From a bacterium (GTDB lineage Bacteria; Patescibacteriota; Saccharimonadia; UBA4664), in contig CP064960.1 of the NCBI GenBank assembly GCA_016699105.1, positions 1,223,436 to 1,287,435 of the forward strand: DNA of 64,000 nucleotides, written 5' to 3'. Position numbers and translations under genes: made by a program. Below the pieces are notes generated by a model that was not told where the DNA came from, searched no databases, and saw nothing but the letters and a program-made list of their open reading frames with translations. Shown here piece after piece: positions 1 to 16,753 of this stretch (the first letter of the stretch is position 1; every line of letters begins with the position of its first letter).

Positions 1-56
1 AAACCGTCAGGCGTGTAATCATTATCACCTATTGTATCAGGCTACTGGCAATCAAA

Positions 57-731
57 ATGATTTGGGAGTACCATGCAGCTATGAATCGTAAACTCACTGG
101 CACAGCGTTAGTCGTTCTTGGTTTGGTCTTATTATTGGCTAATCTCAATTTGTGGGGTATGCAAAGTTTGCTCAGCGATTGGTGGCCGATCATTGTGATT
201 GTGACTGGTCTACTGATGTATCTCAACGATAGCCGTAATTATGTCTGGTCGTTCCTGGTAACTGGCATTGGCACAGTTTTACTCTTAAAAACACTTGATA
301 TCACACAAGTAGATGTGGGCGATCTAATAGTACCCGGTATAATTATTGCAGTTGGTACCTCAATTTTGTTGCGTAACCGCTCACACGCCGCACAGGTGGA
401 ATCAGGCAATGAAGACATTACCGCGGTTTTGTCTGGCGTAACCCACCGCAATACCAGCAACGATTATCAGGGGTGCGAAGTGACGGCCGTCATGGGTGGT
501 GTCGAACTTGATTTGAGCAAAGTAACGATTGCCAAAGAGGCGGTCGTAGATGTGTTTATTTTGATGGGCGGGTTAGAGCTGCGGGTGCCCGATAATGTCA
601 TCGTTAAATCAAAAGCTGTGTGCATCTTGGGTGGGGTCGAAGACAAGACCAATCCCGCCGATGCCACTAAATCACCAGTATTGTACCTCGACGGTACCGT
701 AATAATGGGTGGCGTCGAAATTAAGCGCTAG
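57..731 (+). CDS. LiaF-like / DUF2154-type membrane protein (cell-wall stress response protein-like)
   Basis: N-terminal TM helices, then a repeated GGVE(L/I) beta-rich C-terminal module typical of LiaF/DUF2154 family. Confidence 0.45.
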   Translation: MIWEYHAAMNRKLTGTALVVLGLVLLLANLNLWGMQSLLSDWWPIIVIVTGLLMYLNDSRNYVWSFLVTGIGTVLLLKTLDITQVDVGDLIVPGIIIAVGTSILLRNRSHAAQVESGNEDITAVLSGVTHRNTSNDYQGCEVTAVMGGVELDLSKVTIAKEAVVDVFILMGGLELRVPDNVIVKSKAVCILGGVEDKTNPADATKSPVLYLDGTVIMGGVEIKR

Positions 732-1432
732 GTCGCGGTCTGGCGAATATGATCAAGTGCAGCAGCGGCAGCGGCTTGTTGGCCGGCTTGTTTGCTCGAG
801 CCGGTTCCAGTACCAAGCTGCTTGTCACCCACAAAGGCACCGATGGAAAACGTCTTGTCGTGGTCTGGGCCGTCTTCGGACAATACCCGATAGGCCGGCG
901 TGAGCCCAAATTGATCTTGAGCCATTTCTTGAAAACGACTCTTAGCATCCAGCCAAGTGCCATCGGCTAAGATAGCATCCAAACGCGATATGACACTCTG
1001 GGCAATAAAATTACGTGCTGCCTCATAGCCTTGGTCCAAATAGATAGCGCCGATCAGAGCTTCTACAGCATTGGCGGAAATGAGGGCATGGGAACGGGCA
1101 TTGCCTTTGGCTTCACCACGGGAAAGCTTGAAAAACTGGGCAATTTCGAGATTGATCGCAACTTCTGCTAAAGACTCAGTTTTGACGAGTGCCGAGCGCC
1201 AATTGGTGAGATCACCTTCGGGATTTGGAAAATTGCGGTAGAGGTGGTCGGTGACAGCAAGTTCAAGCACAGCATCGCCCAGGAATTCCAGGCGTTCATT
1301 GTGTTCGAGTCCGAGACCTGGATGCTCATTGAGATACGAACGATGAATAAAGGCTCGTTCGAGGAGCGAAGGATCGGCAAAGTTGAGACCGAGTTTAGCT
1401 TGAAAGTCTTGTAGTGGCGTGACAGTGGTCAT
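728..1432 (-). CDS. rnc: ribonuclease III
   Basis: RNase III signature ERLEFLGDAVLEL plus C-terminal dsRBD; 4-nt overlap with upstream ORF. Confidence 0.9.
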   Translation of the reverse strand: MTTVTPLQDFQAKLGLNFADPSLLERAFIHRSYLNEHPGLGLEHNERLEFLGDAVLELAVTDHLYRNFPNPEGDLTNWRSALVKTESLAEVAINLEIAQFFKLSRGEAKGNARSHALISANAVEALIGAIYLDQGYEAARNFIAQSVISRLDAILADGTWLDAKSRFQEMAQDQFGLTPAYRVLSEDGPDHDKTFSIGAFVGDKQLGTGTGSSKQAGQQAAAAAALDHIRQTAT

Positions 1433-1440
1433 ATTAATTC

Positions 1441-2100
1441 TTATGATACTCCAGTTTGGGGTTTAGACGCAGCCGAAATGGGCGGCTGGGCGGCATCTAA
1501 CCGGGCGAGTGCCATCCGGAAAAGCCGCTCAGTATCGCGATACTCGATCAAACCCAAGGCTTTACTGGCATCGAACCAGCGCGCATCAACGATGCCTTCT
1601 GAGTTTTCGGCGACGATTTTGTCGGTATCACCCACAGCTTCCATGAGGAATACATGCGTGGTCATAAAGATCAACTTGCCTTCCCGGCGATAGAAGAAGT
1701 GTAGTTTATCGAGTTTTTCGTCCAATCGTAAGTGACTCAAGCCCGTTTCTTCGGCAACTTCACGAACAGCTGTTTGTTCGATGGATTCTCCGGCTTCGAC
1801 ATGCCCTTTGGGTATACTCCAGCGGCCTTGACGATCCTGGATCATCAAGATTTCGACGCGACTGCCGAGAATACGATAAACTACTCCACCAGCGGTATAC
1901 TCCCTGGTCGCACGGATGCGGCCGGGAGCTTTGGTAGCTTTATTCCCTGAACGGTGGAACGACTTACGCCGTGCTGGTTTCTTGCGGTCTTCGGATTTTG
2001 GTTGGGGTTGGGGTTCTGACTCTGGTTCATAGAAATCGCTTGATCGGTAAATGGTGCCCAAAACACCGTTGATAAACTTACTTGGAGTTTTCGCCACCAA
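1441..2100 (-). CDS. NUDIX hydrolase
   Basis: Nudix box [22 protein letters not shown]; basic low-complexity N-terminus, start uncertain. Confidence 0.75.
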
Positions 2101-2455
2101 ACGTCTTAGCCAATTCGACGGCCTCGTTGATAGCTACTTTGGGCGGAACTTCGCGTTTGTTAATGAGTTCATAAACGCCAATACGCAAGATAATCTTGTC
2201 GATTTTGGCGATCTGATCTACTGGCCATTCGGGCGCTGCCGGTCCGATAATGGCATCTATATCAGGTAAATGAGATGATACACCATCGACGATATCTTGA
2301 ACGAAGTTGGTGTCGTCTATATTTGACCGGAATTCGTCGAGATTGCGCTCGAGAATTGGGGATAGCTCTAAACCTGACGTCTCACCGCCTCGAAAGTCAT
2401 GCTCATAGAGCGTTTGCATGGCTACGATGCGGCCGAGGTGGCGATTGCTAGCCAC
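2078..2455 (-). CDS. nusB: transcription antitermination factor NusB
   Basis: NusB-like N-terminus [17 protein letters not shown], ~125 aa all-helical. Confidence 0.75.
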
Positions 2456-2606
2456 GTTTGACGAGTCCTAGCTCGACCGCTTTCTTGAGGCGGCGGGGTA
2501 CGAGTCCGCCAGCAGTGGTACGGACCAGCTGGACGGCTTTGAGAGCCAGGTGAGACCGCCGTTGGCCTTGGGCGCCGCGGGTAGTGCGTTTTTTGGGAAC
2601 TGCCAT
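2448..2606 (-). CDS. rpmF: 50S ribosomal protein L32
   Basis: Unlisted small ORF translating [23 protein letters not shown]..., the canonical L32 N-terminus; sits downstream of the YceD-like gene as in many bacteria. Confidence 0.65.
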
Positions 2607-2612
2607 GATAGT

Positions 2613-3032
2613 TTACCTTTCGTTAGAACTTGTGGCGTTGTCTGACCAATCCAAGCCGGGGCAATCAGGTCGGTCGAGTAACTTGATGGGCAGACTCAAC
2701 AGTATTTCCTGTTGAATTATGTCATCGAGGCTAATTTCGTCTCTGATAATCGGTTGTTCATCTTCGGTCGGCCTTTGGGCAAAGGTCTGCCGGATGTGCA
2801 CCCGCACTGGGTGGTCAAAAGGGCGCAAGCAACGGTGACATTCGAGCTTGATGATAGCATTGATGGTGCCATCGATAGATACCGCTTTGGCTGCCGTCTT
2901 GGTGATGGTTACCGTTCCGTCGACCGGCTCGGTTAACTCAACCTCGTCCAAATCAGGATTTTCGTCTGATATGGTAAAGGCCCGGCGATATCCGGTATCT
3001 TGGGCTAAAATGTCTCGTACATTGATGTGCAT
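2613..3032 (-). CDS. yceD: YceD/DUF177 family protein (large-subunit rRNA accumulation protein)
   Basis: CHRC...C metal-binding-like motifs; conserved position immediately upstream of rpmF. Confidence 0.7.
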   Translation of the reverse strand: MHINVRDILAQDTGYRRAFTISDENPDLDEVELTEPVDGTVTITKTAAKAVSIDGTINAIIKLECHRCLRPFDHPVRVHIRQTFAQRPTEDEQPIIRDEISLDDIIQQEILLSLPIKLLDRPDCPGLDWSDNATSSNER

Positions 3033-3096
3033 CGCACTCTTGGCGCAGATTATAACAGATCCGGAGGCTGTTTGGCAAACAGGCCGCCTGAGTTGA

Positions 3097-4268
3097 TTAA
3101 TCGGCGCCTACTCCTTCCAACTCTTGATTAAATGATTGGTCATAATTGCCACTGCCATTGGCATCCCAATAATGATGGGCTTCGTAGCGGATATTGGCGT
3201 CGGGGTCCTGGATCCAGGCATGAGGATGATTGGTACGCCAACGTGCCAAACTGGACCAATCGTAGCCGGATACAGCAATCGTTTTGTGAAAACCTGAAGC
3301 CCGCAAGGCCGAGACCACAGATTGACTAGCGGCTTCCCAAGTTTGCGCGGCGCTACCCACAGCCGAAGCTGGTAAGTCATGTGGTTCATTCATGATGCCG
3401 ACTCCGATCACGGCTGAATGATTACCGAGAGCTGATGCCAGCTTGATCCAGACATCAGCTAATTGGTCCGAAGTAAGTTGCTCGGTACCCAAAATAAATT
3501 CTCCCGCATCCGTGCGATAACGACCATAATTATGCAATCGAGCACGACTCGTAGATGGGCGGCGGCGGCAAAATCTAATTGTTGACGCACCGCTACTACT
3601 TCGGCATCTTTGAGCGGTCCACCCAATTCGGGTTGCAATCGTTCCCAGCGCAATGGTAGGCGGATCAGTGTCAATCCTCGGCTGGCTACGTAATTATAAC
3701 TGGAAGCGGGCTCATAGAAATAATCCCGTCCGGGCTCACCAGGAATTTGAGCAGTCAATTGGGTGCCAAATTCCATACCGGCGACATTGACTCCATATAA
3801 ACCCAGGTGAGTATGGTTTAAGGCCGTTTCAAGACTGTTGGCGGTAGCCCGAGCCGTATCAATGCCTTGGCCTTGACTCGATCCGTACAGCGTCATGGGA
3901 TAGTCACCCCAATGACTGCCAGCCGCCCAGCCAGTTACCCAGAGATCTTGTTGACGGGCACTTTGGAACCAAACGTCAGCCACCGCGTTCCAGCGACTTT
4001 GATCAGCACCTAGGGGCCAGCCGAGCTCACCGACAAAACCGGGGGCTTGATTTTCGGCTAGCCAACTTTTGAAGTCGTCGAGTTGCGTAACCGCCCGTTC
4101 TTCGACCGCGTTACTGACGCGAGGATATACCGGAAGCGGCAACCAACCATTGGTATCGATTTGACTTTGGAGCAGTACAGTACCACAAACGGCCACGGTG
4201 GCTCCGAATACCCCCAGGCTCAACCAGACGCGGGACGGCCAGAGTTGCGGCCCTTTAGGCCAAGTCAT
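3097..4268 (-). CDS. glycoside hydrolase family 5-like (cellulase family), secreted; split by a 1-nt frameshift near 3534-3537
   Basis: Signal-peptide-like N-terminus. GH5 motifs present: RLPLRWE, LDC(H)NYG (restored by adding one C), IMNEPHD (acid/base Glu), HHYWD, GELGWP (nucleophile-like). Motif order looks permuted. Confidence 0.5.
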
Positions 4269-5604
4269 GCAGAATCTCCGCCGCTACGACCCGGCCATCA
4301 CGCACCGCATAGTTTGTGCCACGATCCTCAGGAAATATTTGACAAAAGTTTGATAGATAAACGCCAGGCAAGGGTGTGCGGCGAGCAGGTATCTTGGATT
4401 CATAATCGATACCCACAATGTGCTGGGCATTGGCAAATTTGAATACATAGCTTTCCTTAACCCACTCGGTAGAAAATTTGGGAAACAACTTCGACAGTCC
4501 AGTAAGCCATTTATCCTTAATTTGATCCTCGGTCAGTTTCAACAATGGGCTATCGGCGGATACATAATCGCCAATGTAATACACGTAATGCCCCCCGATA
4601 TTGGCTGGTCCGACAAGCGCATCAAGACTTAAAAATACCAAGAATGGCGCATCAATGTCATGGATCTGGTGCCAATAGCGGTCGGTAATGGGCTGGTCGG
4701 TCGTAAAGACCATGACCACTGCCGACAGATACGTGATGTCCTGAAGCTGGCGGCTGTAAGGTGTAGTCATAGCCGGATGGTTGGATGCCAATCGTGCGAG
4801 TACACCGGACGGCAGGGCTGCGAGAATCGCATCATAAACTTTGGTTTTACCCCCAAGAACTACGGCCGGGTGACCATTGGTTTCGGTGATTGCCGACAAT
4901 TGCGTCTGCGTCTGAATAGTTACACCCAAGCGACGGAGCTCGGTTTCCAGTTGACGGACGACTACTTGGAATCCACCTTCGTAGTAACCGAGTCGTTCGG
5001 ATTGTTCACCTTTGATTTTGGACGTCTGGCGGACGTGAATACGAGTCCACAGCCAAGCCATGGTTACTTGGTCCCAATACTTGTCGAACTTACCAACGAG
5101 CAATGGTTTCCAGATGAGATCGGCTGCCCGGCGACCATTCCAGCGACACAGCCATTGGTAGGCAGTGATCTGGGTGAGTGGTTGCCAACGCTTGAGGGTC
5201 AATAACCTCAACCCAGTCAGCCCTGTGCGGAATCGGTCGAGTAAACTCAATGGTCCAAAGCTGAGCAAATCTTTGGCCGTCGTAAACGGATACAGTTTGC
5301 CTCGGTAAAAAGCACCAATGGAACTGGGATAGAAGTGCAATTTGTCGGCCACACCCAATTCTTGGCTGAGTTCAATCATGTAATTGTCGGTGGTATAGAG
5401 AAAATGATACGCTCTCTCCAGCGGTGTACCGTCGGCTAGTTGAAAGCCGGCAGCCAGCCCGCCCAAGGTATTGCCGGCTTCGTAGATAGTTACATGACAG
5501 CCGGCTTTGGCAAGTTCATAGGCAGCTGTCAAACCGGTGAAACCGCCCCCAATTATGGCTACTGAGTGGCGAGTAGTCTTATTCATTGGTACCGCCAGTC
5601 GCAA
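4255..5604 (-). CDS. FAD/NAD(P)-binding oxidoreductase (amine oxidase / phytoene desaturase / HemY superfamily)
   Basis: N-terminal Rossmann dinucleotide motif VAIIGGGFTGLTAAYELAKAG...E; ~450 aa; 4-codon overlap with the GH5-like gene. Confidence 0.55.
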   Translation of the reverse strand: MRLAVPMNKTTRHSVAIIGGGFTGLTAAYELAKAGCHVTIYEAGNTLGGLAAGFQLADGTPLERAYHFLYTTDNYMIELSQELGVADKLHFYPSSIGAFYRGKLYPFTTAKDLLSFGPLSLLDRFRTGLTGLRLLTLKRWQPLTQITAYQWLCRWNGRRAADLIWKPLLVGKFDKYWDQVTMAWLWTRIHVRQTSKIKGEQSERLGYYEGGFQVVVRQLETELRRLGVTIQTQTQLSAITETNGHPAVVLGGKTKVYDAILAALPSGVLARLASNHPAMTTPYSRQLQDITYLSAVVMVFTTDQPITDRYWHQIHDIDAPFLVFLSLDALVGPANIGGHYVYYIGDYVSADSPLLKLTEDQIKDKWLTGLSKLFPKFSTEWVKESYVFKFANAQHIVGIDYESKIPARRTPLPGVYLSNFCQIFPEDRGTNYAVRDGRVVAAEILHDLA

Positions 5605-5959
5605 AGGTCAAGCGCGAATTTAGGTAGAATTGCAGCACAAAGACAAATGGTAGTGTGCCAATTTTGGCCCAGGTTTGATTGACACCGCTGGCCACCAAGC
5701 CGGCTAAAATAGCCGTGCTGAGCACATAGCCGGCACCGCTGACACCGGCAAAACTGGCGAATCGTTGTATCAAGCGGTTGCTCGTTTGAAAATTGTATCG
5801 AGCATTGAGAGCAAAGCTATACAACATGGCCAAGCCGATAGAAAGGGCGTTGGCCAATACAATCGGTAGACCAACGATTGAACCGAGCAGCCAGAATAGG
5901 GTGACATCAATAACGACCGCTCCCCCACCGATGACAGCATACCAAGCTAGGCGTTTCAC
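5579..5959 (-). CDS. GtrA family membrane protein (polysaccharide synthesis/translocation)
   Basis: ~126 aa, 4 TM helices, GtrA-like signature; overlaps neighbouring genes in an operon. Confidence 0.7.
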   Translation of the reverse strand: MKRLAWYAVIGGGAVVIDVTLFWLLGSIVGLPIVLANALSIGLAMLYSFALNARYNFQTSNRLIQRFASFAGVSGAGYVLSTAILAGLVASGVNQTWAKIGTLPFVFVLQFYLNSRLTFATGGTNE

Positions 5960-7179
5960 TATTTGAGCTCCATTCTGAGGCTGGCAGGAAGGTGCCTCTG
6001 AAAATTATGCCACTGCCAATACCAAACCTGGTCTAAATAACTACCGCCCTCACCCCAGTATCCATCCACATGGTACTGGTCATGTATCTCATATGTGTAG
6101 AGGGTTTGCAATTGCTCTGAGTCGACAATCTGGTTGGTTTGACCATACATCAGCCAGGCGATGTCGGCTGGTGGCGAGGCAATGCGGGAGCGGAAATCGC
6201 GCAGCAGTGGTTCAATTTGAGTCAAGGTAGAGCGGGCTGTCTGAGCTCGGGTCTTGTCTGGTGTAGTGTATTCCTCAACCAGATGATAGACCAGTAAGAG
6301 ACTATCGTAGCCAAAGCTGTCAGCTGCCGGACCCATGACACTGCGAGCAGATGTGACCTCGCCGGCGGCACTCACCAATACCCAATCAGGTAACTGGTCA
6401 GCAGCCAGCAATGAATTGATGGTCGTATAATTGTCCCGTACCAATTCTGCCCAAGCATATTGCGGTACTTTGGTTGCTAGATAGGCGTAGGTGTCGGGAT
6501 CAAAATATCCTGGATTGACCAAGTGCGGATTGCGGCTTCCATCAGCTGACGAATCGACAAACCACCGCCCGCCCGCCTTGAAGACACACTTGGACCACCA
6601 ATCGGCAGTGTGGCGGGAAGCAGTTGAGGCATAGCCTTGACCTGGCCATTTTTCATCGGCTCGAAACAGCGCTGCGGCGGTGAGCTGATCAGCCGAGCAA
6701 ACATTATTGGCGTCGGCCAAACCGTAGACGCCACTGGCGTTTTTGGCCCATTTCCAGGACAACAAACTGTCATTTTGACGGTGGCGTAAATGGTCTTGAG
6801 TCCATTGCCACAGACCAGCAAACATAGCTTTGTCATTTTCGGCAACCGCGCGGTTGAGCGCCTGAGCCTGGGAATACGATGTCGTCAATCCCTGATTGTT
6901 GGGGTCGACTACTTGGCCATAACTAATAATGTAATGGTCTTTGAAATATGCCCAGGAATCTTGGAGGACGATCTCATTGCGACTCTTAACCCGATAAACT
7001 TGAGCCCAGTCGCCATTGGTCGAAATATAATTCGGTAAATCGATGAAACTTGAGGCACCAGTCGTAAAATCGGCGACCAGTTCGGAGTGATCAATATGAG
7101 CTTCATCTTGGGAGTGGTGCCGGCTTTGATCTGGCTTACGATTTCGTGCGTCAGGATCAAATATTCGATATTGCGCCAA
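5959..7179 (-). CDS. glycoside hydrolase family 8-like (endo-beta-1,4-glucanase, BcsZ-like) domain
   Basis: GH8-like blocks: WAYFKDHYIISYGQVVD...TTSYSQAQA (cf. TSEGQ), AGLWQWTQDHL, ADANNV..DQ. No signal peptide. N-terminus overlaps the upstream GT-C ORF by 270 nt in another frame, so a frameshift-masked fusion is possible. Confidence 0.55.
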   Translation of the reverse strand: MAQYRIFDPDARNRKPDQSRHHSQDEAHIDHSELVADFTTGASSFIDLPNYISTNGDWAQVYRVKSRNEIVLQDSWAYFKDHYIISYGQVVDPNNQGLTTSYSQAQALNRAVAENDKAMFAGLWQWTQDHLRHRQNDSLLSWKWAKNASGVYGLADANNVCSADQLTAAALFRADEKWPGQGYASTASRHTADWWSKCVFKAGGRWFVDSSADGSRNPHLVNPGYFDPDTYAYLATKVPQYAWAELVRDNYTTINSLLAADQLPDWVLVSAAGEVTSARSVMGPAADSFGYDSLLLVYHLVEEYTTPDKTRAQTARSTLTQIEPLLRDFRSRIASPPADIAWLMYGQTNQIVDSEQLQTLYTYEIHDQYHVDGYWGEGGSYLDQVWYWQWHNFQRHLPASLRMELK

Positions 7180-8549
7180 TCATCATCATAGGTCTGTCGG
7201 ACCTCGGGATCGTATTCGGCGGTAAAGAAATAGCTCACATGTTGGTACGCGCGCTGTTGCACAAAATATGGATACACGTAGTTGTCTGCGACAATGTGGG
7301 CTGAAGTGGGAATATGGGTCTGAACCCAATCGAGGGCTGCTTGCTGGTTGGAAGTTTCGGATACAGTGTATGGCTTGGCTCCTAATACCGACAGCGTGAG
7401 CAATAATAATATAAATCCGGCGGCCAAATGCACCCGCCTAAACCAACGCCAGCGACGAGGCCAGAGTTCTTGACCCAGCACGACCCAAAAACTAGCGATA
7501 GTAGCCGCCAGAAGCGGAATGTAGGGCACAATATACAGATCTATCACTATTTTGCCGCGAGCCAAAAACAATAAATAGAGCCAACAAGCAACAGCAAGTA
7601 CGATTAGGTAGGGATACCGACGACGACGCCAGATCGCCATGGCGGTCAAGCCGATCAAGCCGATAGCACCCCCAAGCAAGATAAATGGATCTTTGAGCGC
7701 CCACGTATTTAGGTTTAGCCGAAAGCTACTACGTGCTTGCCACGGCCAGGCAAAGTCGCCTCGGCCTAATTGCAGCTGAAAAGTTTCAACCATGCTGACA
7801 TGGAGCGGTTGGCCCGAGGCGTCGCGGGGAGCGGGTAGAAGTTCGCCCTTGAGGGCAGCATATAAGAAAAACACCAGTATCATGGCGCCAACGACGAACG
7901 TCCAATACAACAAAGCGTGCAACCGGTGGCCGGGATCGGCTTTTTTCCAGATGAGATACCAAAATGCTGGTAAGAAGAAGATGGCGTTGAGTTTGGTGAG
8001 GACAGCTATGCCCAAGAAGACGGCGCTCCAGATATAGTGATGCAATTGATGAGCTGGGCGGCTGGCCCACCACAAACTGAGCAGAACCCAAAAGGTCATG
8101 AGATTGTCGAGCAAAATGCGGCGCTGAAAATAGATGCCCAACGGCGACAAACTAAAAATTAAAACCGCACCAAAACCAGCGGCTTTGCTACCGTGAGTGA
8201 GTCGTTTGGTAACAGCGTAAAGTAATACACACGAACTCAAATGAATGATCAGCATAAACACTCGGCCACTCGTGACGAATGATCCAAACAGATTGTCGGT
8301 GCCACCAGTCAGCCACAACCAGGCACCAATGGTGATCCAACCAAGCGGCGCATGGTCATAGCGGTAGGTATAAACATCAAGTTGGCCAGTAGTTATAAAC
8401 TGCCATCCCCGTGATATGTAGGTGGCTTCATCGTTTTCGATGTATGGATAACCGGTCATATTCCAGCCATGGGCTAAACCGGCAACCACGAGCAATCCGA
8501 CAACAAGCCAAGTTTCGGGACGTTTGAGAAATTTGATGAGACGGTTCAT
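6909..8549 (-). CDS. GT-C fold glycosyltransferase, ArnT/PMT (GT39/GT83)-like polyprenol-phosphate-sugar-dependent transferase
   Basis: Start at MNRLIKFLKRP (abuts upstream stop). >10 TM helices. Loop-1 YIENDEATYISRGWQF DE-motif typical of PMT_2/ArnT family. C-terminal ~90 codons are ambiguous: they overlap the GH8 ORF. Confidence 0.6.
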   Translation of the reverse strand: MNRLIKFLKRPETWLVVGLLVVAGLAHGWNMTGYPYIENDEATYISRGWQFITTGQLDVYTYRYDHAPLGWITIGAWLWLTGGTDNLFGSFVTSGRVFMLIIHLSSCVLLYAVTKRLTHGSKAAGFGAVLIFSLSPLGIYFQRRILLDNLMTFWVLLSLWWASRPAHQLHHYIWSAVFLGIAVLTKLNAIFFLPAFWYLIWKKADPGHRLHALLYWTFVVGAMILVFFLYAALKGELLPAPRDASGQPLHVSMVETFQLQLGRGDFAWPWQARSSFRLNLNTWALKDPFILLGGAIGLIGLTAMAIWRRRRYPYLIVLAVACWLYLLFLARGKIVIDLYIVPYIPLLAATIASFWVVLGQELWPRRWRWFRRVHLAAGFILLLLTLSVLGAKPYTVSETSNQQAALDWVQTHIPTSAHIVADNYVYPYFVQQRAYQHVSYFFTAEYDPEVRQTYDDDWRNIEYLILTHEIVSQIKAGTTPKMKLILITPNWSPILRLVPQVSSIYRIIFRPMATGLKFIGLRVAMRSSSKIPGHISKTITLLVMAK

Positions 8550-9817
8550 AGTACACTCCGGTTCGGTGGTCGGTGGGCGCCGAGGTGGGCAGTTTTTTCC
8601 CAGCCGTGATGGCCCCGGTGATGTCGCCAGAGAGCGCGCCAAGCAGCTGCTGACAGTAACAATTGGTATGGTAAGTAGGCTAACAAAAAGCGGACGTAAT
8701 GATACCAACGTACCGGACGTTGTTGCTCTTGCCCAAACTCATACAAGCCAACAAGACTGACTAAAATACTCAAAATACTGAGCAATAATGGCATAAACGA
8801 CAGTAAGCTGACAAATATATTGGCCTGCAAATACAGCCCCAGCAAGAGGGTAAGCGGCGCCAATGCTAATACCCAAGCCATAAAGCTGGGGCTTTGCAAA
8901 ATATAGAGTACGAGGCCAATTTGTTTGCCGTAGGACAACCGACGCCAGTCACCTTTGGAGGTGATCTGAAGAAATCCTTGATTCCACCTGGTGCGCTGTT
9001 TGATGAATGCCGAGACGGTAGCGGGCGTTTCTTCGCGGGTAACATGACTGGCGTCGTACATAACACCAAAACGCTTGCCAGCCAGACTGAGGCGGATACC
9101 GATATCGGCGTCTTCGGTCAGGCAGCTCTCATCCCAGCCCCCAACTCCGAGTACATCGGCTTTGCGGAAAAAGACCGTATTACCGCCGAGTGGCACGATG
9201 CCAGCTCGGGCGTAATAATGCATCCGGGACTTAAACCAAAAGAAATATTCTAAAACATTGGCGGCACTAAACCAGCGGCTGTCAAAATTCATCAGTTGAA
9301 CTCCGCCCTGCAAGATATCGATAGCTTGGTTGTGATAAAGGGTGTTGGCAATATTTAAAATATCGGGGCTGACATCGTCTTCGGCGTCAAAAATGGTCAC
9401 CAGCTCATGACGCGCAGCTGCCAGCCCGATGTTCATAGCCCGGGCTTTGCCACTGGGTGGGTCGAATACAATCACCCGGGCGTTGGTAATGTGGTTTTGG
9501 GCGATGCTATCGCGAGCAGCAGTGATAGTATCTTGGTCATCAGGTGTACAGAGCACGATTAATTCGAATTTGTGAACCGGATAATTGATGGCCGCCAAAG
9601 CCTTAAGTGTTTCGCCGATGACCTGGTGTTCGTGGCGGCTGGGTAACAAAATACTGAAGCCAAAGAGCGGCGGACGGTACGTTTTGGGTGCACGAGCGTG
9701 GTCAATGCGAGCCGGATCAGCCCAGGCATACAACGTGAGATACAGATTGACGAAGCCGTGAAGCGTCAAAGCGAGGGCAAAGCCGGCTAGTAGCCATGTC
9801 TGAACATCACTTAGCAT
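8546..9817 (-). CDS. processive family-2 glycosyltransferase (cellulose/chitin/PNAG-synthase-like), integral membrane
   Basis: GT-A motifs DAEDD and DxD, plus processive-GT signature QRTRW (QxxRW). Flanking TM helices. Confidence 0.7.
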   Translation of the reverse strand: MLSDVQTWLLAGFALALTLHGFVNLYLTLYAWADPARIDHARAPKTYRPPLFGFSILLPSRHEHQVIGETLKALAAINYPVHKFELIVLCTPDDQDTITAARDSIAQNHITNARVIVFDPPSGKARAMNIGLAAARHELVTIFDAEDDVSPDILNIANTLYHNQAIDILQGGVQLMNFDSRWFSAANVLEYFFWFKSRMHYYARAGIVPLGGNTVFFRKADVLGVGGWDESCLTEDADIGIRLSLAGKRFGVMYDASHVTREETPATVSAFIKQRTRWNQGFLQITSKGDWRRLSYGKQIGLVLYILQSPSFMAWVLALAPLTLLLGLYLQANIFVSLLSFMPLLLSILSILVSLVGLYEFGQEQQRPVRWYHYVRFLLAYLPYQLLLSAAAWRALWRHHRGHHGWEKTAHLGAHRPPNRSVL

Positions 9818-10952
9818 GGTGACGAGAGTGATTCCAGATATACTTTACAGACAGGTAATAATTGGCAATAAAAGCCGTCACGATACCGATTAACTGAGCT
9901 AATACGAAGTGGAGACCGCTCCAAGTGAGGAGACTATACGTGCCGAGCATAAGCGTTTGCGACAGCAGTACGGCGCCTTCGTACTTGAAAAACCGAAAGA
10001 TGACATTGTGCCGTTTTGGCCGGTTGGATGCGGCTGTTTCCCGAAAGGTAAAATAACTATGTAGCAGAAAGTTCCAGATCACACTGATTTGGATAGCCAT
10101 AAACGAGATATACGGCAAGGTACTGCCAGTCAGATGCTGAAAATACCACAGGGCAGCCAAATTGACGGCAGTACCACTGGCACCAACTGCCATAAACCGC
10201 ATTGCTTGTTTGGCCGGTGAATCGGAGTTAAGGTGGTAGGCAATTTTCAAAAATTCCACGATATCAGACAACCGAGCCTTCGAACGTCCACTGGCGCGGC
10301 TACGAAAGGTAATCGGCACTTCGGTCACGTGGTACAGGCCATCCGTAAAAGCATTCGCCAGAAATATTTGGATACCATACCCGTTTGCCTGGACATCGTT
10401 GTAAGGTATTTCGACCAGAACCTGGCGCCGCATGGCTCGAAAATTGGTCGTTAACTCGTGTAAATCTGAACTGACACCACCGAGCCAATGTGCTAGGGCT
10501 GTGGCTAGGCGCGTTCGAACTATGAGGTGAAGTGGCCAATTCCCTGGGATCATTCCGCCTTCGATATATCGCGACCCGATGGCTACGTCGGCACCAGCTG
10601 ATATGGCGTCCATGAGAGCGGGAATATCTTGAGGACTATGTGAAAAATCGGCATCCATGGTGAGAATGACATCATGATCGTAGGTCAAAGCGGCGTCGAA
10701 CGCTCGCTGCAACGCCCGGCCGAGTCCATCTTTTTGACCGGTATGTAAGAAAACACGGCCCACATATAGACTGTCTGCCAGGCGTTTGACCACGCGGGCA
10801 GTACCATCAGGAGATGTGTCGTCCATGACCAATACGTCGATCTGCCAGTCAGTGAGCTGATCGCTGACAGCAAATATCTCGGCAAGGAGCGGTTCGACAT
10901 TCCTGGCTTCGTTGTAGGTAGGAAGGATTACGAGGGCTTTGGAATGAGGCAT
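9807..10952 (-). CDS. polyprenol-phosphate sugar synthase (GT2, DPM1/GtrB-like) fused to C-terminal GtrA-like membrane domain
   Basis: ILPTYNE, DDTSPDGT, DAD motifs of Dpm1/GtrB-type GT2. C-terminal 4-TM GtrA-like domain. Confidence 0.75.
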   Translation of the reverse strand: MPHSKALVILPTYNEARNVEPLLAEIFAVSDQLTDWQIDVLVMDDTSPDGTARVVKRLADSLYVGRVFLHTGQKDGLGRALQRAFDAALTYDHDVILTMDADFSHSPQDIPALMDAISAGADVAIGSRYIEGGMIPGNWPLHLIVRTRLATALAHWLGGVSSDLHELTTNFRAMRRQVLVEIPYNDVQANGYGIQIFLANAFTDGLYHVTEVPITFRSRASGRSKARLSDIVEFLKIAYHLNSDSPAKQAMRFMAVGASGTAVNLAALWYFQHLTGSTLPYISFMAIQISVIWNFLLHSYFTFRETAASNRPKRHNVIFRFFKYEGAVLLSQTLMLGTYSLLTWSGLHFVLAQLIGIVTAFIANYYLSVKYIWNHSRHHAK

Positions 10953-11010
10953 AGGGTACCGACTGTATTTACACTGCCAGATGTACCCAAGATATGCAAC
11001 CCGCTAGGCT

Positions 11011-11694
11011 CTAAAAAATTGTTAGAGAGGCGTGGCGCAGTAACCACCAGCCAAAGATGCCGCCTAAGATGCAACCAGTCACTAACTGGGCCGTGAGGAT
11101 AAGCCACCAATCGCGACGCGGCCATTGGCGGTTTTGCCAAGAAAAATCGAGTAGTACTAATCGAAAATCGGGGTCGGTGATTGAGGTAATTCCAAAAACC
11201 AGTCCGAAACCGGCGCCTCCAAGAATCGACATAATTATCAATCGGGCAGCGAATGTATCAAGCATGCCGCCAAACAACCACGTCAGGGCTGCGAAGCCGG
11301 CGCCAGCTACCAGAGACCACCGGATGACTTCCAGGCCGGAGTGGCGGGCGTAGGCCACTCTGAGGCGGCGCAGTTCTTGGCGAGCAGCGTTGATTTGGGC
11401 TTCTGACTGGACCTGCGGAGAAGTAGCAGCTGAAGCTGCCGATTGCACCGGCGGTGGCGCGTAATGTTGGGTGCGCTCCTGGTCAAATATAGCCCGCTTG
11501 TCGGCATCCCCAAGTACTCCATAGGCGTCGTTGAGTCGGTCCATGGCGTCGGCACTACCACCAGCGTCAGGATGGGCTTTTTTAGCCGCTTGACGGTAGG
11601 CTTGCTTGATAACAGCGACAGTCGCAGTCGGGGTGACTCCAAGTACCTGATAATAGTCGATAAAGGATTCGCTTGGTTGATAAGCTGATGCCAT
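11011..11694 (-). CDS. J-domain (DnaJ-like) membrane protein
   Basis: N-terminal J domain DYYQVLGV...HPD. C-terminal TM helices. Confidence 0.7.
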   Translation of the reverse strand: MASAYQPSESFIDYYQVLGVTPTATVAVIKQAYRQAAKKAHPDAGGSADAMDRLNDAYGVLGDADKRAIFDQERTQHYAPPPVQSAASAATSPQVQSEAQINAARQELRRLRVAYARHSGLEVIRWSLVAGAGFAALTWLFGGMLDTFAARLIIMSILGGAGFGLVFGITSITDPDFRLVLLDFSWQNRQWPRRDWWLILTAQLVTGCILGGIFGWWLLRHASLTIF

Positions 11695-11724
11695 TATTTA
11701 GCATTATAACCGTTTTGGTTAAAG

Positions 11725-14684
11725 TTAGGCTTTAACCACAAAGTTAACGATTTTGTGTGGCACTAATATCGTCTTAACTATCGTTTTACCCTCTAGATGC
11801 GGCACTACCTTAGGATCGACCAGAGCGGCGGCTTTGACTTCTTCGTCGGTCGCGTCGGCGGCTACAACCAGTTCACCGCGCAATTTGCCGTTGACCTGAA
11901 GGATGATGGTTACAATGTCGTCTTTGATGAGTTCGGGATCGTACTTCGGCCAAGGCGCTTGATGGACGCTCCCCTCTTGATGCAAGTTTTGGTGCCAGAC
12001 TTCTTCGGCCAAGTGGGGCACAAAGGGAGCCAACATGAGTACCAAAGTGCGGACAGTTCGCTCGCGCAAATCGTGGGCGTTAGCTTGGCGCAGTTTTTGC
12101 TTAACTTCGGTAGTGGTTAGATAATTGACCAACTCCATCATGGCTGACACACCAGTATTGAAATGCATATCCTCGATGTCGTGGTGCACTTTTTTGAGCG
12201 TCTTATGGACGATGCGGTCGGTGGCCACTGTAAATGCGCCTAAGTCGTTTTCATAGCCGACTGAACCTGACAGTGTTTCGACACCGTCAGTAAGGTCGTC
12301 AAGCCAGGTCCAGACCCGATAGACGAAGCGGGAGACGCCGTTGAGATGATCTTCTGACCAAGCTTTAACTTCGTCGAACGGACCCATAAACATTTCGTAT
12401 AAGCGGATGGTATCAGCACCATACTCGGCGATGACGCTGTCGGGGTTGATAACGTTGCCTTTAGATTTGCTCATTTTTGACCGTCGGGTCCCAGGATCAT
12501 GCCATGGGAGCGACGACGCGCATAGGGTTCACTGGTGGGTACGAGGCCTTCGTCATATAGGAATTTGTGCCAAAAGCGACTGTAGAGCAAATGGAGGGTA
12601 GTGTGCTCCATGCCACCGTTGTAGAGGTCGACAGGGGTCCAGTATTTGAGGTTGGCGGCTGATGCAAATTCGTTGTTATTGTGTGGGTCGGCGTAGCGCA
12701 GGAAGTACCAACTGGATCCGGCCCAATTGGGCATGGTGTCGGTTTCGCGCTGCGCGGGTCCCCCACACTTGGGACATTCGGTATTGACCCAGTCGGTGAT
12801 GGCCGCCAGGGGAGACTTCCCGGTATCAGTGGGCTCATAGTGATCCACTTTGGGTAGTTCGATGGGTAGTTGGTCAACCGGCACGGGCACCACACCATCT
12901 TTGGCGCAATGAACTACCGGAATCGGCTCGCCCCAATAATGTTGGCGACTAAAGATCCAGTCGCGCAGGCGGTACTTGGTGGCACCTTTGCCGGCGCCCT
13001 TATCAAACAGAGCTTTGACGATAGCGCGCTTGGCCTCGACGCCGGACAGACCGTTGAACTGGGTGGAGTTGATGAGCGGCCCATTGGCAGCAAAGCTTGT
13101 GCCTTGTGTAAAAAAGCGAAGCCACAATGCGTGCATTTCGTCTTGTACGTTGGTTAATGCTTCGGTGACAGGCAACCAGACCGGCTCGACGTTGTTGTGC
13201 TTTTCGCTACTCGTCAGCTTTAGTTCATTCCTATTATCGCTCTTCAATCTGAATAGGAAACCGGTAGTGACCGCTAACCGGTTGATCTTTTTTTCGGCAG
13301 AGAAATAATGATGATGAATCCGAAATGGAGCTTGTTCGACCAGTTCAAAGTCGGTATACCCGGTTTCTTCATTGACTTCGCGCCTGGCTGTGTCTAATGG
13401 CTGCTCACCCTGGTCTATGCCTCCACCAACCAGCAGATGTCCGCCCCAATTATCATGGCGGCCGTAGTGATCCATACTCAGAACCTTTTTACCTGATTGA
13501 TCGAGCAGCACAGCCACAATACTAGGGCGCTCCTCGGGTGCTTCAGGGCCATTGCCAGTATAAGGTTCAACCACATATGTGATGGGCAGATTAAAGGCTT
13601 TGGCAAATTCATAGTCGCGCTCGTCGTGGGCAGGTACGGCCATGATGGCGCCGGTGCCATATGAACCGAGTACGTAATCGGCGACCCACACTGGGATTTT
13701 CTCGCCAGTAAGCGGATGGATTGCCTTAATGCCGGTGTCGACGCCAGTTTTGACTTTGGATTCTTCTTGGCGCGATAGTTCGGAGGCCTTGAGGGCGGCG
13801 TCGATATAATCGGCGGCCTCTTGGTTGGCTTTCCAGCCGTTATCTTGCCAGGTTTTGGCGACTTCAGGCGAGACCACCAGGAAGGTGGCGCCAAAGAGTG
13901 TGTCGGGGCGGGTGGTGTAGACGGTGACTGTTGGTGTTGATTGTTCTTTAAGATTGAGACCTGCTAATTCCCAAGTAATTTCGGCACCTTCGGAACGGCC
14001 GATCCAATTGATCTGCTGGGTGGCGATGCGGTCGAGATAATCGACGGTCTTGAGATCTTCGGCCAGACGATCGGCGTAGGCGGTGATTTTGAGCATCCAC
14101 TGGGTGAGCATTTTCTTTTCGACTGGTGTGCCACAGCGCTCATGCTTACCGCCTTCGACTTCTTCGTTGGCAAGGCCGGTTTTACAAAATGGGCACCAGT
14201 TGATGGGCAGTTCTGCCTGATAGGCGAGGCCTTTTTCGAGGAGCTTCAAAAAAATCCATTGGGTCCATCTGTAATAGTTGGGATCTGACGTGCGGACTTC
14301 ACGGTCCCAATCGAAACTCAAACCCAAGGCGCGCATTTGGAGACGGAAGTTGGCGACGTTGCGCTCGGTTGCTACTTGGGGGGCAATCTTGTTTTTGATG
14401 GCGTAGTTTTCGGTTGGTAAGCCAAACTCGTCAAAACCCATGGGGTAGAGCACGTTGTATCCCTGCATACGCTTATGGCGAGCCATGATATCTAAGGCGG
14501 TATAACTCAGTACGTGGCCGACGTGCAGACCGTCGCCGCTGGGATACGGGAATTCAACGAGATAAAAATACTTCGGCCGGGTGTGGTCATCATCGCGAGC
14601 GGCATACAGCTTGGTGTCGGCCCAGACGCCCTGCCATTTGGATTCGATTGCTTTGGGATCGTATTTGTTCATAGTTGGCCTCAA
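11725..14684 (-). CDS. leuS: leucyl-tRNA synthetase (single gene split by 1-nt homopolymer frameshift at 12474-12478; carries an inserted NUDIX domain)
   Basis: HVGH (HIGH) motif, editing-domain TTRPDT, C-terminal fragment begins inside KMSKS (..GQK|MSKSKGN). Adding one A to the A5 run restores GQKMSKS. ~135-aa insert with Nudix box [24 protein letters not shown]. Confidence 0.9.
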
Positions 14685-14778
14685 TTATAGCGCGGGATCA
14701 GATAGACGGCTAGAGTATTTGACTTACATATGCTTAAATGATAGCTCCGATTGCACTGTACCTTGAGAGGACGGCATC

Positions 14779-14937
14779 ATGGATATCGATGACTTTCTGA
14801 TCGGATTATTCGGATTGATGATGATTTTTCTCGGACCTCTTCTGTTTGCCGTGGGATTATTTATTGGCGGAAGGGGTTTGGTAATAACTTTCATCGGCCT
14901 GCTTTGGTGGCTATGGTCATGGGGACAGCTGGACTAG
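14779..14937 (+). CDS. small hydrophobic membrane protein (52 aa)
   Basis: Unlisted ORF MDIDDFLIGLFGLMMIFLGPLLFAVGLFIGG...; two predicted TM helices. Speculative. Confidence 0.2.
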   Translation: MDIDDFLIGLFGLMMIFLGPLLFAVGLFIGGRGLVITFIGLLWWLWSWGQLD

Positions 14938-15266
14938 CGATTGTGCTTATTGGGCTCAGGCATAGCGAGACTGTCGGCCGTCGCGCCAATAACAGCTATT
15001 AACCAATCCCGGTCTTCCCACATGTCTGGAGGAACCCGCAAGTAGGGCTTTGATCCGGGATATGCTTGGCCGTCGAATGACTCATCGAGATACTGTCGGC
15101 TAACTGGCGTGATTTTAATGAACAGCGTGTCGTCACAAATGAAGGCTGTCGGTTTGCTATCAACGTATAGGCAATACTCTCCAAACATCCGGCGAGTACT
15201 TAGACGATCCGACATCACTGCAAGCTGCTCTACGAGAAAATCGATCGTGTCTTGAGATGTTGCCAT
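14934..15266 (-). CDS. TfoX/Sxy N-terminal domain protein
   Basis: MFGEYCLYVDSKPTAFICDDTLFIK matches TfoX_N consensus (MFGgyglY..gk.FalvcddqLylK). Confidence 0.5.
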   Translation of the reverse strand: MATSQDTIDFLVEQLAVMSDRLSTRRMFGEYCLYVDSKPTAFICDDTLFIKITPVSRQYLDESFDGQAYPGSKPYLRVPPDMWEDRDWLIAVIGATADSLAMPEPNKHNR

Positions 15267-15321
15267 GTAGCTAGTATACCAACGGCATCCGAGATCCTAT
15301 ATACCGAGAGGAAGTGGAACC

Positions 15322-15510
15322 ATGCGAGGATGGAGGCCGGAACATGCACCCACCAACGAAGAGTATGGACTGGCAAGCCTACCCAAGGATGAGGGTAATG
15401 AGGTACTAGGGGAGGTGAGAGAGGCGCTCGATACGGGAGACCTGGGTGCAGCTGAAGATGTGATGGCTCACCTGAGGTATCTTGGCCGGAGAGCCAAGAA
15501 AAAGAAGTAG
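15322..15510 (+). CDS. hypothetical small acidic protein with Lys-rich tail
   Basis: 62-aa ORF followed by a terminator hairpin; no recognisable domain. Confidence 0.25.
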   Translation: MRGWRPEHAPTNEEYGLASLPKDEGNEVLGEVREALDTGDLGAAEDVMAHLRYLGRRAKKKK

Positions 15511-15527
15511 GATATGTAACGCAACGT

Positions 15528-15567
15528 CCGTTTCCCGGTCTATTCGACTGGGAAACGGGCACTTTTA
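15528..15567 (+). terminator. rho-independent terminator (9-bp GC stem CCGTTTCCC/GGGAAACGG plus T-run)
   Basis: Perfect inverted repeat followed by CACTTTTAT. Confidence 0.5.
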
Positions 15568-15570
15568 TAC

Positions 15571-16344
15571 CTAAATCTCGCCGCGTAAATAGCGTTGACG
15601 TTCGGTAGCGTCAAAGCGCTCGATGGCGTAGCGGAGCATGGTGCGCGGCATGCGATGATAGTTGGCATTTAGGAATTGACGTAGGACCGATATATCGCGT
15701 TTACCGATTTCACGAAGCATCCATCCAACGGCTTTATGAATGAGATCATGTGGGTCTTGCATCAATTGCTCGGCCAGCCGTAACGATAAGTCAAACTGAC
15801 CGGCTTTGATGTAATAAAAAGTGGCGAGGACGGCGATGCGGCGTTCCCAGATGAGCTTGGAGGCTGCTAATTTTTCAAGTGCCGGGCGACCATCAGTTTG
15901 GGAGTCTAACCATGGCCCCACAATGTAAGGTGCTGAGGAATCAACGAGGTCCCAATTATTGATGTGCTCCGTGTGTCCCAGATAGATTTTATAAATGGCT
16001 TTGCGGGTTTCCGGAGTGCCGTTTTCATATTGATACACCAGTAACAACAGTGCCGTTAATCGCTCTTCATGAATTTTGCTGACTAATAATTTCTTGATTT
16101 CTGGTAACGAAATATGGCGGAATTTCTGGACGATTGAGCGTTGCAATGGGACGGTGACGCCAATGAAACGATCACCATCGGCATATTGCCCGGGTCCGGT
16201 CTTGAAGTAGCGTTGTGACAGTGCAGCCCGCACCGGGTCGGCAAATCGTTTGAGTGATTGCTGGACTGATTTGGCGGTTTGGAGTGGTAATAGGTTCACG
16301 CTTGCCAGCATAGCAGATTTAGCCGGTGTGACCGAGACCACCAC
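15571..16344 (-). CDS. DNA alkylation repair protein (AlkD/AlkC-like HEAT-repeat glycosylase family)
   Basis: Family-typical NNWDLVD and WMLREIG blocks; ~257 aa. Confidence 0.6.
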
Positions 16345-16753
16345 TGCCTCTGGAAGTTGAGTCTAAGCTGTCGACTGCTGTAATGTCGGCTACGACGTAT
16401 GTGGCCAGGACGGCTTGGGCGATACGGTCACCGTCTTGGACTGTGTAGTCTTGGCTCGACAAGTTGACCAATATAACCATGAGCTCACCGCGGTAATCGG
16501 CATCAATCGTGCCCGGAGCATTGAGCACCGTAATGCCATGTTTAGCCGCCAAGCCACTGCGAGGGCGAATCTGGAGTTCGTGGCCGGAGGGAATAGCACT
16601 GTAGAGACCGGTGGGTACGATAGCTCGCTCGAGCGGCGCCAATTTAACTGCCTCGTCGATATTGGCTGTCAAATCAAAACCGGCGGCACCAGCAGTTTGA
16701 TAGGCGGGTAACGGATGGCGGCTGCGATTGATGAGTGGGAGTTGTATAGACAT
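16319..16753 (-). CDS. dut: dUTP diphosphatase
   Basis: dUTPase motifs [20 protein letters not shown]. Real start MSIQLPL at 16753 overlaps the murF stop (TAATG). Confidence 0.85.

Follow-up and report, generated by a model that had tools for sequence, protein, structure and literature searches.

A compact gene cluster combining a BcsA-like glycosyltransferase with lipid-linked-sugar enzymes and cellulase-type modules in a Saccharimonadia genome

The minus strand of a 64,000-nucleotide stretch of a Saccharimonadia chromosome (lineage UBA4664; GenBank assembly GCA_016699105.1, contig CP064960.1, positions 1,223,436 to 1,287,435; this whole stretch is called the window below, and its first letter is position 1) carries at positions 3097-10952 a co-oriented gene set that unites a lipid-linked-sugar branch, consisting of a polyprenyl-phosphate sugar synthase, a GtrA-family protein and a GT-C glycosyltransferase, with a processive-type family 2 glycosyltransferase (GT2) and with glycoside hydrolase modules of families 8 and 5 (GH8 and GH5). 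A first-pass annotation, made from the letters alone, had recognized this combination; the families that it named were all recovered by Pfam among the listed open reading frames (ORFs) of the window, on the minus strand and in the positions it had assigned to them:

9807-10952, minus: Glycos_transf_2 and GtrA/DPMS_TM
8546-9817, minus: Glyco_tranf_2_3 / Glyco_trans_2_3, with the motif QRTRW
6909-8708, minus: PMT_2
5959-7179, minus: Glyco_hydro_8
5579-5959, minus: GtrA
4255-5604, minus: Amino_oxidase / NAD_binding_8
3097-3537 and 3459-4268, minus: Cellulase (GH5), in two ORFs

The same annotation had counted seven adjacent, overlapping genes; adjacency and overlaps stand, with each gene overlapping its neighbour by 1-14 nt, and the count falls to six once the frames broken by single-base deletions are mended. 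An exact-protein look-up of the GT2 led to six independent metagenome contigs that are 98-99% identical to the window, and on all six of them GT-C and GH8 form one protein of 863 amino acids (aa); the supposed stand-alone GH8 gene is the C-terminal domain of this GT-C. In the window itself the GT-C and GH8 ORFs overlap by 270 nt, and the N-terminus of the GH8 ORF has no export signal. On both contigs that reach far enough (L001 and L002; L-numbers denote contigs and loci throughout), the GH5 is a single protein of 390 aa, and the neighbouring leucyl-tRNA synthetase (LeuRS) is intact. Base-level alignment against these near-identical contigs mapped the single-base deletions to window positions 7092/7093, 3537/3538 and 12478. 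More generally, the first 19.8 kb of the window (1-19813) differ by eight single-base indels from two mutually concordant, 98-99% identical assemblies (positions 1984, 2083, 3537, 7092, 12478, 15566, 18333 and 18615); all but one are bases missing from the window, chiefly within homopolymers, and the exception, at 2083, is an insertion that shortens the nusB product to 125 aa, compared to 163 aa. The deletion at 12478 turns a run of six A into five exactly inside the KMSKS motif of LeuRS and splits this gene. Since the reference assemblies agree, the deletions fall mostly in homopolymers and the LeuRS signature is broken in the same way, the frame breaks are most likely assembly errors in an operon of six genes. 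True pseudogenes were considered and rejected as the principal explanation, given that the KMSKS motif suffered the same type of deletion and that eight indels occur within 19.8 kb. As a warning for annotation, the "extra" gene and the "split" GH5 of the window are best read as assembly errors, and more false frameshifts are to be expected elsewhere in it. After frame repair, the genes and their principal features are as follows, with the source of each assignment in brackets:

9807..10952, minus: polyprenyl-phosphate hexose synthase, 381 aa, GT-A domain plus GtrA-like four-helix membrane domain (Pfam, PDB alignment)
8546..9817, minus: BcsA-like membrane GT2 "synthase", 423 aa (Pfam, PDB profile, AlphaFold/Foldseek)
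5959..8549, minus: GT-C fused to a GH8-like domain, 863 aa after frame repair (contigs, homologues, AlphaFold)
6976..8549, minus: GT-C module of the fusion, about aa 1-525 (Pfam, motifs, Foldseek)
5959..6975, minus: GH8-like (alpha/alpha)6 domain of the fusion, BcsZ type, about aa 526-863 (Pfam, profile, Foldseek)
6874..6876, minus: codon TAT for Tyr559 at the position of the GH8 general-acid Glu (read from the sequence)
5579..5959, minus: stand-alone GtrA-family small membrane protein, 126 aa (Pfam GtrA_DPMS_TM 4.9e-19, full length)
4255..5586, minus: cytoplasmic FAD-dependent oxidoreductase, 443 aa, amine-oxidase/phytoene-desaturase fold (Pfam, NCBIfam, L001 gene call)
3097..4268, minus: membrane-anchored, circularly permuted GH5 (GH5_5-like), 390 aa after repair (PDB alignment, homologues)
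4026-4028, minus: codon of the GH5 nucleophile Glu81 (codon checked)
3385-3387, minus: codon of the GH5 acid/base Glu295 (codon checked)

Protein modules of the cluster

The GT2 contains solely GT2-type Pfam domains in its 423 aa (Glyco_tranf_2_3, 1.9e-36; Glyco_trans_2_3, 2.4e-25), with no PilZ domain among them; in its AlphaFold model (pLDDT 90.4), one N-terminal transmembrane (TM) helix is followed by a GT-A domain with the motifs FDAEDD, TED and QRTRW, and by a C-terminal helix bundle. By sequence, the solved protein closest to it is BcsA, the synthase of the bacterial cellulose (Bcs) operons, with an E-value of 4e-7 for the single protein and of 4e-16 for a profile of 30 sequences; a Foldseek search of the model likewise returned the BcsA proteins of Escherichia coli and Rhodobacter sphaeroides at the top (E 1e-15, TMq 0.68-0.70), followed by PcManGT and hyaluronan synthases. 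The catalytic motifs of Bcs-type GT2s are in place, and FDAEDD, LTEDAD and QRTRW are invariant across 30 homologues. A further motif at the C-terminal end (W-E-K-T-x-H-x-G-x-H-R, 8546-8620) is also invariant in 30 of 30 aligned homologues; possibly it corresponds to the gating-loop motifs found in cellulose and hyaluronan synthases.

The start codon of the fusion protein overlaps the stop codon of the GT2 (ATGA, 8546-8549), and its AlphaFold model has a pLDDT of 86; the fusion recurs in more than 100 full-length homologues of 840-930 aa from Saccharibacteria, other Patescibacteria, Chloroflexota and a few Actinobacteria. The GT-C module consists of a multi-helix membrane domain and an extracytoplasmic alpha/beta domain (about aa 400-525). 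It matches Pfam PMT_2 (4.5e-10; 40.4 bits vs. a cutoff of 26.1) and, below the cutoff, PMT (2e-4; 21.5 bits vs. 22.7); sequence comparison with the PDB gave no relative at E < 0.1, and Foldseek found generic GT-C fold matches to AglB, Stt3 and ArnT. The first outside loop carries a DE motif (D40, E41), followed by the motif YDHAPLGW, and the residues D40, E41, Y44, Y62, Y64, D65, H66, P68, G70, W71 and R143 are invariant in 16 diverse homologues. Judging from the Arg-rich loops at residues 308-314 and 363-374 and from the model, the C-terminal 460 residues of the fusion are taken to lie outside the cell.

The appended domain has the (alpha/alpha)6 fold and the family signature of GH8: Pfam Glyco_hydro_8 matches it at 7e-25, above the cutoff, and NCBIfam BcsZ at 5.8e-24, below the cutoff; a profile of the domain family finds BcsZ in the PDB at 2e-44, ahead of a chitosanase (1e-19) and a xylanase (1e-17), and Foldseek aligns the domain with BcsZ-type enzymes (TMt 0.77). 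The general-acid glutamate of the family is absent: the GH8 motif T-S-E-G-Q reads T-S-Y-S-Q in the window, with Tyr559 in place of the acid, and DADxD reads SADQL. In a neighbor-joining tree of 87 fusion proteins, Saccharibacteria and Actinobacteria form one clade, in which the two are sister groups; within this clade the general-acid position is almost never occupied by Glu (Y, A, S, T, G, L, M, Q and others appear instead), whereas Glu is retained by both Chloroflexota sequences and by almost all of the deeper Patescibacteria. Many Trp and Asp residues of the domain are invariant with or without the general acid, which argues for a retained sugar-binding cleft. The window domain is thus unlikely to act as the trimming hydrolase proposed in the first-pass annotation; it is probably a non-catalytic beta-glucan-binding module. 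A GH8 domain that is kept long after the loss of its catalytic acid is of interest as a case of protein evolution.

The GH5 is most closely related, among solved structures, to the GH5_5 endo-beta-1,4-glucanases RBcel1 (4ee9) and Ps_Cel5A (4lx4), with E-values of 1e-43 to 1e-38, and shares with them both catalytic glutamates and the His/Asn/Tyr signature. The segments align in swapped order: query residues 156-385 correspond to residues 3-219 of the 4ee9 chain, and query residues 60-127 to residues 224-289; the same swap appears against a canonical database homologue. The canonical barrel order of strands beta1 to beta8 is not kept, and the segment with the nucleophile precedes that with the acid/base; by this alignment evidence the domain is circularly permuted, with strands beta7-beta8 ahead of beta1-beta6. 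Both Glu295 (IMNEPH) and Glu81 (FVGELG) are invariant in 24 permuted homologues, which also keep the His, Asn and Tyr signature residues. About 100 of the best 120 database matches are collinear with the permuted version, including proteins of Demequina, Microcella, Mycobacteriales and Motilibacteraceae; among GH5 proteins linked to the cluster, those of L007, L027, L031, L039 and L067 are permuted and those of L026 and L040 canonical (5 vs. 2). The GH5 had been annotated as secreted; the family assignment stands, whereas a single N-terminal hydrophobic segment (residues 14-32) speaks for an anchored rather than a freely secreted enzyme. The permutation and this anchor set the window protein apart from RBcel1 and Ps_Cel5A, which transglycosylate cello-oligosaccharides and have been proposed to substitute for BcsZ in Pseudomonas stutzeri, without a GH8. 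No report of natural circular permutation in GH5 was found in the literature searched, the coverage of which is incomplete; a naturally permuted barrel with intact catalytic glutamates is a second case of interest for protein evolution.

The lipid-sugar synthase, the stop codon of which overlaps the GT2 start by 11 nt, had been described as GtrB-type. It is instead a full-length, collinear homologue of the archaeal type-III dolichyl-phosphate mannose synthase (DPMS) of Pyrococcus furiosus (5mlz; residues 5-373 vs. chain residues 24-372, E 1.2e-47), while ArnC and GtrB-type enzymes match at about 1e-7 only. Its Pfam domains are Glycos_transf_2 (residues 8-178) and GtrA_DPMS_TM (residues 252-373); like the Pyrococcus enzyme, it has the DAD motif, the GtrA-like four-helix domain and the residues of the membrane pocket, with N at the position of Asn248, F at that of Phe338 and N at that of Arg341, so that the type-III architecture and the polar pocket (Asn248, Phe338, Arg/Asn341) are both found in this protein. 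In a 2026 study these pocket residues were tied to possible self-flipping of the product, and type III, strictly defined, was restricted to archaea (PMC12992685); the host of the window is bacterial and falls outside this range, and its lipid carrier is presumably polyprenyl phosphate of the bacterial kind instead of dolichyl phosphate. By homology with DPMS, the sugar loaded by the synthase is probably mannose.

The stand-alone GtrA-family protein is a candidate flippase for the polyprenyl-phosphate sugar. In all seven loci with a detected copy (L007, L020, L023, L025, L031, L033 and L039), its gene is followed directly by that of the FAD enzyme. The latter belongs to the amine-oxidase fold (Pfam Amino_oxidase, 1.8e-29, and NAD_binding_8) and, within NCBIfam, to NF005560 (PRK07233, "hypothetical protein"), with 410 bits vs. 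a cutoff of 252 and with residues 8-440 aligned to profile positions 2-430 of 435; the next-best family is the squalene-type HpnE (5e-29, full length), relatives in the PDB are weak (e.g., protoporphyrinogen oxidase, 2e-7), and no TM segment was predicted in the protein. A search for literature on NF005560 (PRK07233), of incomplete coverage, found none.

Distribution across phyla

One genome per species was scanned with the alignment of the fusion proteins, and 80 loci were taken and searched with the six window proteins, with flanks of up to 10 kb fetched on each side. The profiling of other genomes that the first-pass annotation had suggested yields the same gene set repeatedly, a recurrence far beyond chance. 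Of the 80 loci, which come from Patescibacteria, Chloroflexota, Actinobacteria and Dormibacterota, 75 have a co-oriented GT2 no more than 1 kb upstream of the GT-C, and the stop codon of the GT2 often overlaps the start codon of the GT-C. Among these 75 are loci of Streptomyces, Mycolicibacterium, Solirubrobacterales and Chloroflexota with a GT-C that is devoid of a GH8 domain. A DPMS-like gene was found in the flanks of 43 of the 80 loci; 46 gave a GH8 match, which was contiguous with the GT-C match in 41 and a separate match 2-3 kb downstream in at least L025, L029 and L041. The complete six-gene set occurs in L031 (a Saccharibacteria chromosome), in L007 and in L039, the cultured Marisediminicola senii. 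Among the 46 loci with a GH8 match, a GH5 neighbor accompanies five of the nine that have lost the general acid, compared to one of the 37 that have kept it (Fisher p = 5e-4, a value that ignores shared ancestry).

The window proteins find their closest matches in Saccharibacteria/Saccharimonadia genomes. Saccharibacteria and Actinobacteria share several derived features, namely the lost acid, the permuted GH5 and the GtrA-FAD pair; together with their position as sister groups in the fusion tree, this suggests that the cassette has moved between the two. The known hosts of Saccharibacteria are Actinobacteria.

In Streptomyces (loci L074-L086), the order is GT2, GT-C without GH8, and a DPMS-like GT2 that includes a GtrA-like domain. 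In L079 (Streptomyces thinghirensis, 8628-15137), the only such locus to which the Pfam search for this gene was applied, the DPMS-like gene is followed, with a 4-nt stop overlap, by a gene for an 805-aa GlxA-like copper radical oxidase; no description of this GT2/GT-C/DPMS-like/GlxA-like arrangement was found in the literature searched. An apparent GT-C–DPMS fusion in L079 (ORF 10021-12723, 900 aa) was rejected as a high-GC artefact: the GT-C ends at 11536 in another frame, and the two genes are adjacent.

Proposed function and alternatives

In its working, the locus resembles a Bcs operon crossed with a three-component glycosylation system of the Gtr type. With Bcs operons it shares a GT2 with DxD, TED and QxxRW motifs and with BcsA as its best fold, a GH8 fold of the BcsZ type, and a GH5_5-type enzyme encoded in the operon. 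Unlike them, it is devoid of a PilZ domain and of BcsB, BcsC and BcsD (a BcsB-like gene was found neither in the cluster nor in its flanks), its GT2 is about half the size of BcsA, its GH8 forms part of a GT-C protein and is missing the general acid, its GH5 is permuted, and it includes a lipid-linked-sugar branch that is absent from classical Bcs systems. With the three-component systems (GtrA/GtrB/GtrC; CsbB-GtcA-YfhO; GacI-GacL; the pentofuranose systems of Kelly et al., 2024, PMC11127046 / PMC11194591) it shares the joint occurrence of a polyprenyl-phosphate sugar synthase, a GtrA-family protein and a GT-C, here encoded by overlapping genes; some three-component systems also carry FAD oxidoreductases. 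It differs from them in that the synthase is a type-III DPMS rather than GtrB, the GT-C bears a GH8-like domain, the FAD enzyme has an amine-oxidase fold, and the whole is tied to a processive-type GT2, not to an O-antigen or teichoic-acid pathway.

Two actinobacterial systems offer partial parallels. The CslA-GlxA-CslZ system of Streptomyces, which serves an apical glucan, likewise combines a cellulose-synthase-like GT2 with an endoglucanase in a single-membrane bacterium, and the Streptomyces version of the present system ends in a GlxA-like copper radical oxidase, in parallel to cslA-glxA; the window has no copper oxidase, and the Streptomyces cslA locus is described as comprising cslA, glxA and an endoglucanase gene, with no mention of a GT-C or DPMS-like gene (PMC11022532, PMC3543389). 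Mycobacterial EmbC is a GT-C that uses a polyprenyl-phosphate sugar and has an extracytoplasmic C-terminal carbohydrate-binding module, which is considered to hold the acceptor polymer (PMC3044687). The appended extracytoplasmic C-terminal domain of the window GT-C may be likened to this module in function, not by homology, as it is a GH8 (alpha/alpha)6 barrel and not a lectin-like carbohydrate-binding module. No paper on the GT-C–GH8 fusion or on the GT2/GT-C pairing was found, with incomplete literature coverage that makes an earlier description elsewhere possible; searches on Saccharibacteria cellulose synthase, Patescibacteria GT-C, GT39/GH8/GT2 and cslA/glxA/GT-C returned nothing on the present system in the literature searched.

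On this basis we regard it as an even proposition that the operon makes and finishes a cell-surface polymer of the beta-1,4-glucan type in a single-membrane bacterium; the GT-C would glycosylate this polymer on the outside from a lipid-linked sugar. The BcsA-like GT2 would polymerize the backbone from a nucleotide sugar and thread it through the membrane; the type-III-DPMS-like enzyme would transfer a hexose, most likely mannose, onto polyprenyl phosphate, and the lipid-linked sugar would reach the outer face via the enzyme's own GtrA-like domain or via the separate GtrA. There the GT-C would pass the sugar to the emerging glucan or to the glucan's anchor; its invariant DE motif and the fused glucan-type domain together suggest the transfer of single sugars to a glycan outside the membrane. 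The GH8-like domain without its general acid could serve as a glucan-binding arm that presents the acceptor, in the manner of the C-terminal module of EmbC, and the membrane-anchored permuted GH5 could take the cutting or transglycosylating role that BcsZ has in classical cellulose operons. The cytoplasmic FAD enzyme, as the partner of GtrA, would probably act, ahead of flipping, on the sugar or the polyprenyl chain of the lipid-linked donor; an FAD oxidoreductase of a different fold is part of the mycobacterial decaprenyl-phosphate-arabinose pathway. What the sequences show directly is the gene content, the GT-C–GH8 fusion, the motifs, the loss of the general acid, the permutation of the GH5 and a gene order conserved across phyla; we infer the identity of the polymer, the lipid-linked sugar, the acceptor of the GT-C, a GH8 domain that only binds, and the substrate of the FAD enzyme.

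Several observations weigh against this proposal. Classical cellulose synthases need no lipid-linked sugar, and the acceptor of the GT-C could therefore be a protein or a lipid. The assignment of mannose relies on homology with DPMS, and related enzymes use UDP-Glc and other donors. DprE1 is, to our knowledge, the sole well-known FAD enzyme that acts on a polyprenyl-phosphate sugar, and the fold of the window enzyme is unlike it. Four of the nine loci that have lost the general acid have no GH5 within the flanks. A pattern scan of the region for promoters and terminators, which bears on the question of a single transcript, gave counts at the level of shuffled sequence. With regard to the polymer, the GT2 scores best in NCBIfam against PgaC/IcaA (2.3e-22, far below the cutoff), and its minimal fold is shared by the mannosyltransferase PcManGT. 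Finally, no experiment on any member of the system was found in the literature searched.

The first-pass annotation had suggested a beta-glycan that might resemble cellulose or poly-N-acetylglucosamine (PNAG). A PNAG- or chitin-like polymer of N-acetylglucosamine (GlcNAc), or another non-glucose polymer on which the hydrolase modules act, could draw on the PgaC/IcaA match, on a full-length match to an XrtP-associated glycosyltransferase and on the name XagB used in some sources, and the GH8 and GH5 families both contain chitosanases. These NCBIfam matches are, however, far below the family cutoffs, the cluster contains no deacetylase, the nearest relatives of the GH5 are all endo-beta-1,4-glucanases, and the profiles prefer BcsZ to chitosanases by about 25 orders of magnitude and BcsA to other solved GT2s; we consider a polymer of this kind rather improbable. 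Since the GT2 is nearest to BcsA, the GH8 domain to BcsZ and the GH5 to the GH5_5 endo-beta-1,4-glucanases, a cellulose-like beta-glucan is the best-supported product; the cellulose-like half of the earlier suggestion agrees with these affinities, and the PNAG-like half sits poorly with two hydrolase modules of cellulase type and no deacetylase.

The lipid-linked-sugar branch, for its part, could belong to a different process altogether. Two independent neighbors are conceivable, a protein O-mannosylation system (a Ppm1-like synthase, GtrA and a Pmt-like GT-C, as in Actinobacteria) beside a small exopolysaccharide synthase with its glucanases; the synthase is DPMS-like, and the GT-C matches PMT_2 and weakly PMT and carries DE and HxPL-like motifs of the kind that characterize protein O-mannosyltransferases. 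Yet the PMT match stays below its cutoff, the GT-C is covalently fused to a BcsZ-like domain in more than 100 homologues, and the GT2 that precedes it in 75 of 80 loci would be an unexpected companion for a general protein-glycosylation enzyme, so that we hold this arrangement to be unlikely, if the least so of the alternatives. It appears a little less plausible still that the GT2 makes a glycolipid anchor which the GT-C elongates outside from polyprenyl-phosphate-mannose, giving a lipoglycan like the actinobacterial lipomannans: the system occurs in single-membrane phyla, the GT2 has weak matches to Glyco_transf_21, and a DPMS and GT-C pair elongates mycobacterial and corynebacterial lipomannan (cf. 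PMC2440535), but the BcsA-like interface helices, C-terminal bundle and QxxRW motif of the GT2, with polymer synthases as its best folds, argue otherwise, and two cellulase-type modules are hard to reconcile with a mannan. A catabolic cellulase locus, which would serve to feed on beta-glucans of a host or of plants and have no relation to the transferases, would suit the reliance of Saccharibacteria on external carbon and the standing of GH5 and GH8 as classical cellulase families; this is very improbable, as the GH8 domain lacks its general acid, both hydrolase modules are membrane-tethered, the cluster includes neither a sugar transporter nor a gene for downstream catabolism, and the GH8 is fused to a biosynthetic GT-C that always lies beside a synthase.

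Building on the glucan reading, we propose more tentatively, and with the odds against it, a wider interpretation: the gene set could represent an unrecognized, widespread type of glucan synthase of single-membrane bacteria (Patescibacteria, Chloroflexota and Actinobacteria including Streptomyces), in which a minimal BcsA-like synthase works obligatorily with a lipid-sugar-dependent, BcsZ-bearing GT-C; the lipid-linked sugar would branch, prime or anchor the beta-glucan, in the branch of Saccharibacteria and Actinobacteria the GH8 domain would have turned into a pseudo-enzyme, with its catalytic role passed to the permuted GH5, and the cassette would have been exchanged between Saccharibacteria and Actinobacteria. 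If true, this would be beta-glucan assembly with an integral lipid-linked step, a process now thought to need none. Saccharibacteria and other Patescibacteria live attached to host bacteria, and their surface polymers are little known; the operon is a concrete candidate, among the few with relatives in cultured bacteria. Its presence in cultured Actinobacteria (Demequina, Marisediminicola, Microcella), and in simpler form in Streptomyces, makes the predictions testable. A role in host interaction, which the first-pass annotation had called plausible, is pure speculation.

Neighbouring genes

The cluster is flanked by housekeeping genes, with LeuRS and a DnaJ-domain protein upstream and yceD, rpmF and nusB downstream, and the GC content is flat (about 0.49-0.53) within and beside the region; the label "island" given to it earlier was dropped on both grounds, and a genomic island was rejected as an explanation. 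The sole strong promoter-like site lies at 3049-3078 on the minus strand, within the 64 nt that separate the GH5 stop from yceD; it is sigma-70-like, with 11 of 12 matches and an extended -10 TG, and could possibly mark the start of a yceD-rpmF-nusB unit and hence the downstream limit of the operon. On the other side, 58 nt ahead of the operon, the gene at 11011-11694 on the minus strand encodes a membrane protein for which three TM helices are predicted and which starts with a J domain; it was rejected as a seventh member, since a homologue was found at one other locus only, on the opposite strand. In the LeuRS (11725-14684, minus), the editing region and KMSKS are separated by an inserted NUDIX hydrolase domain; with this insert the protein measures 982 aa in L001 and L002 and 1150 aa in L003.

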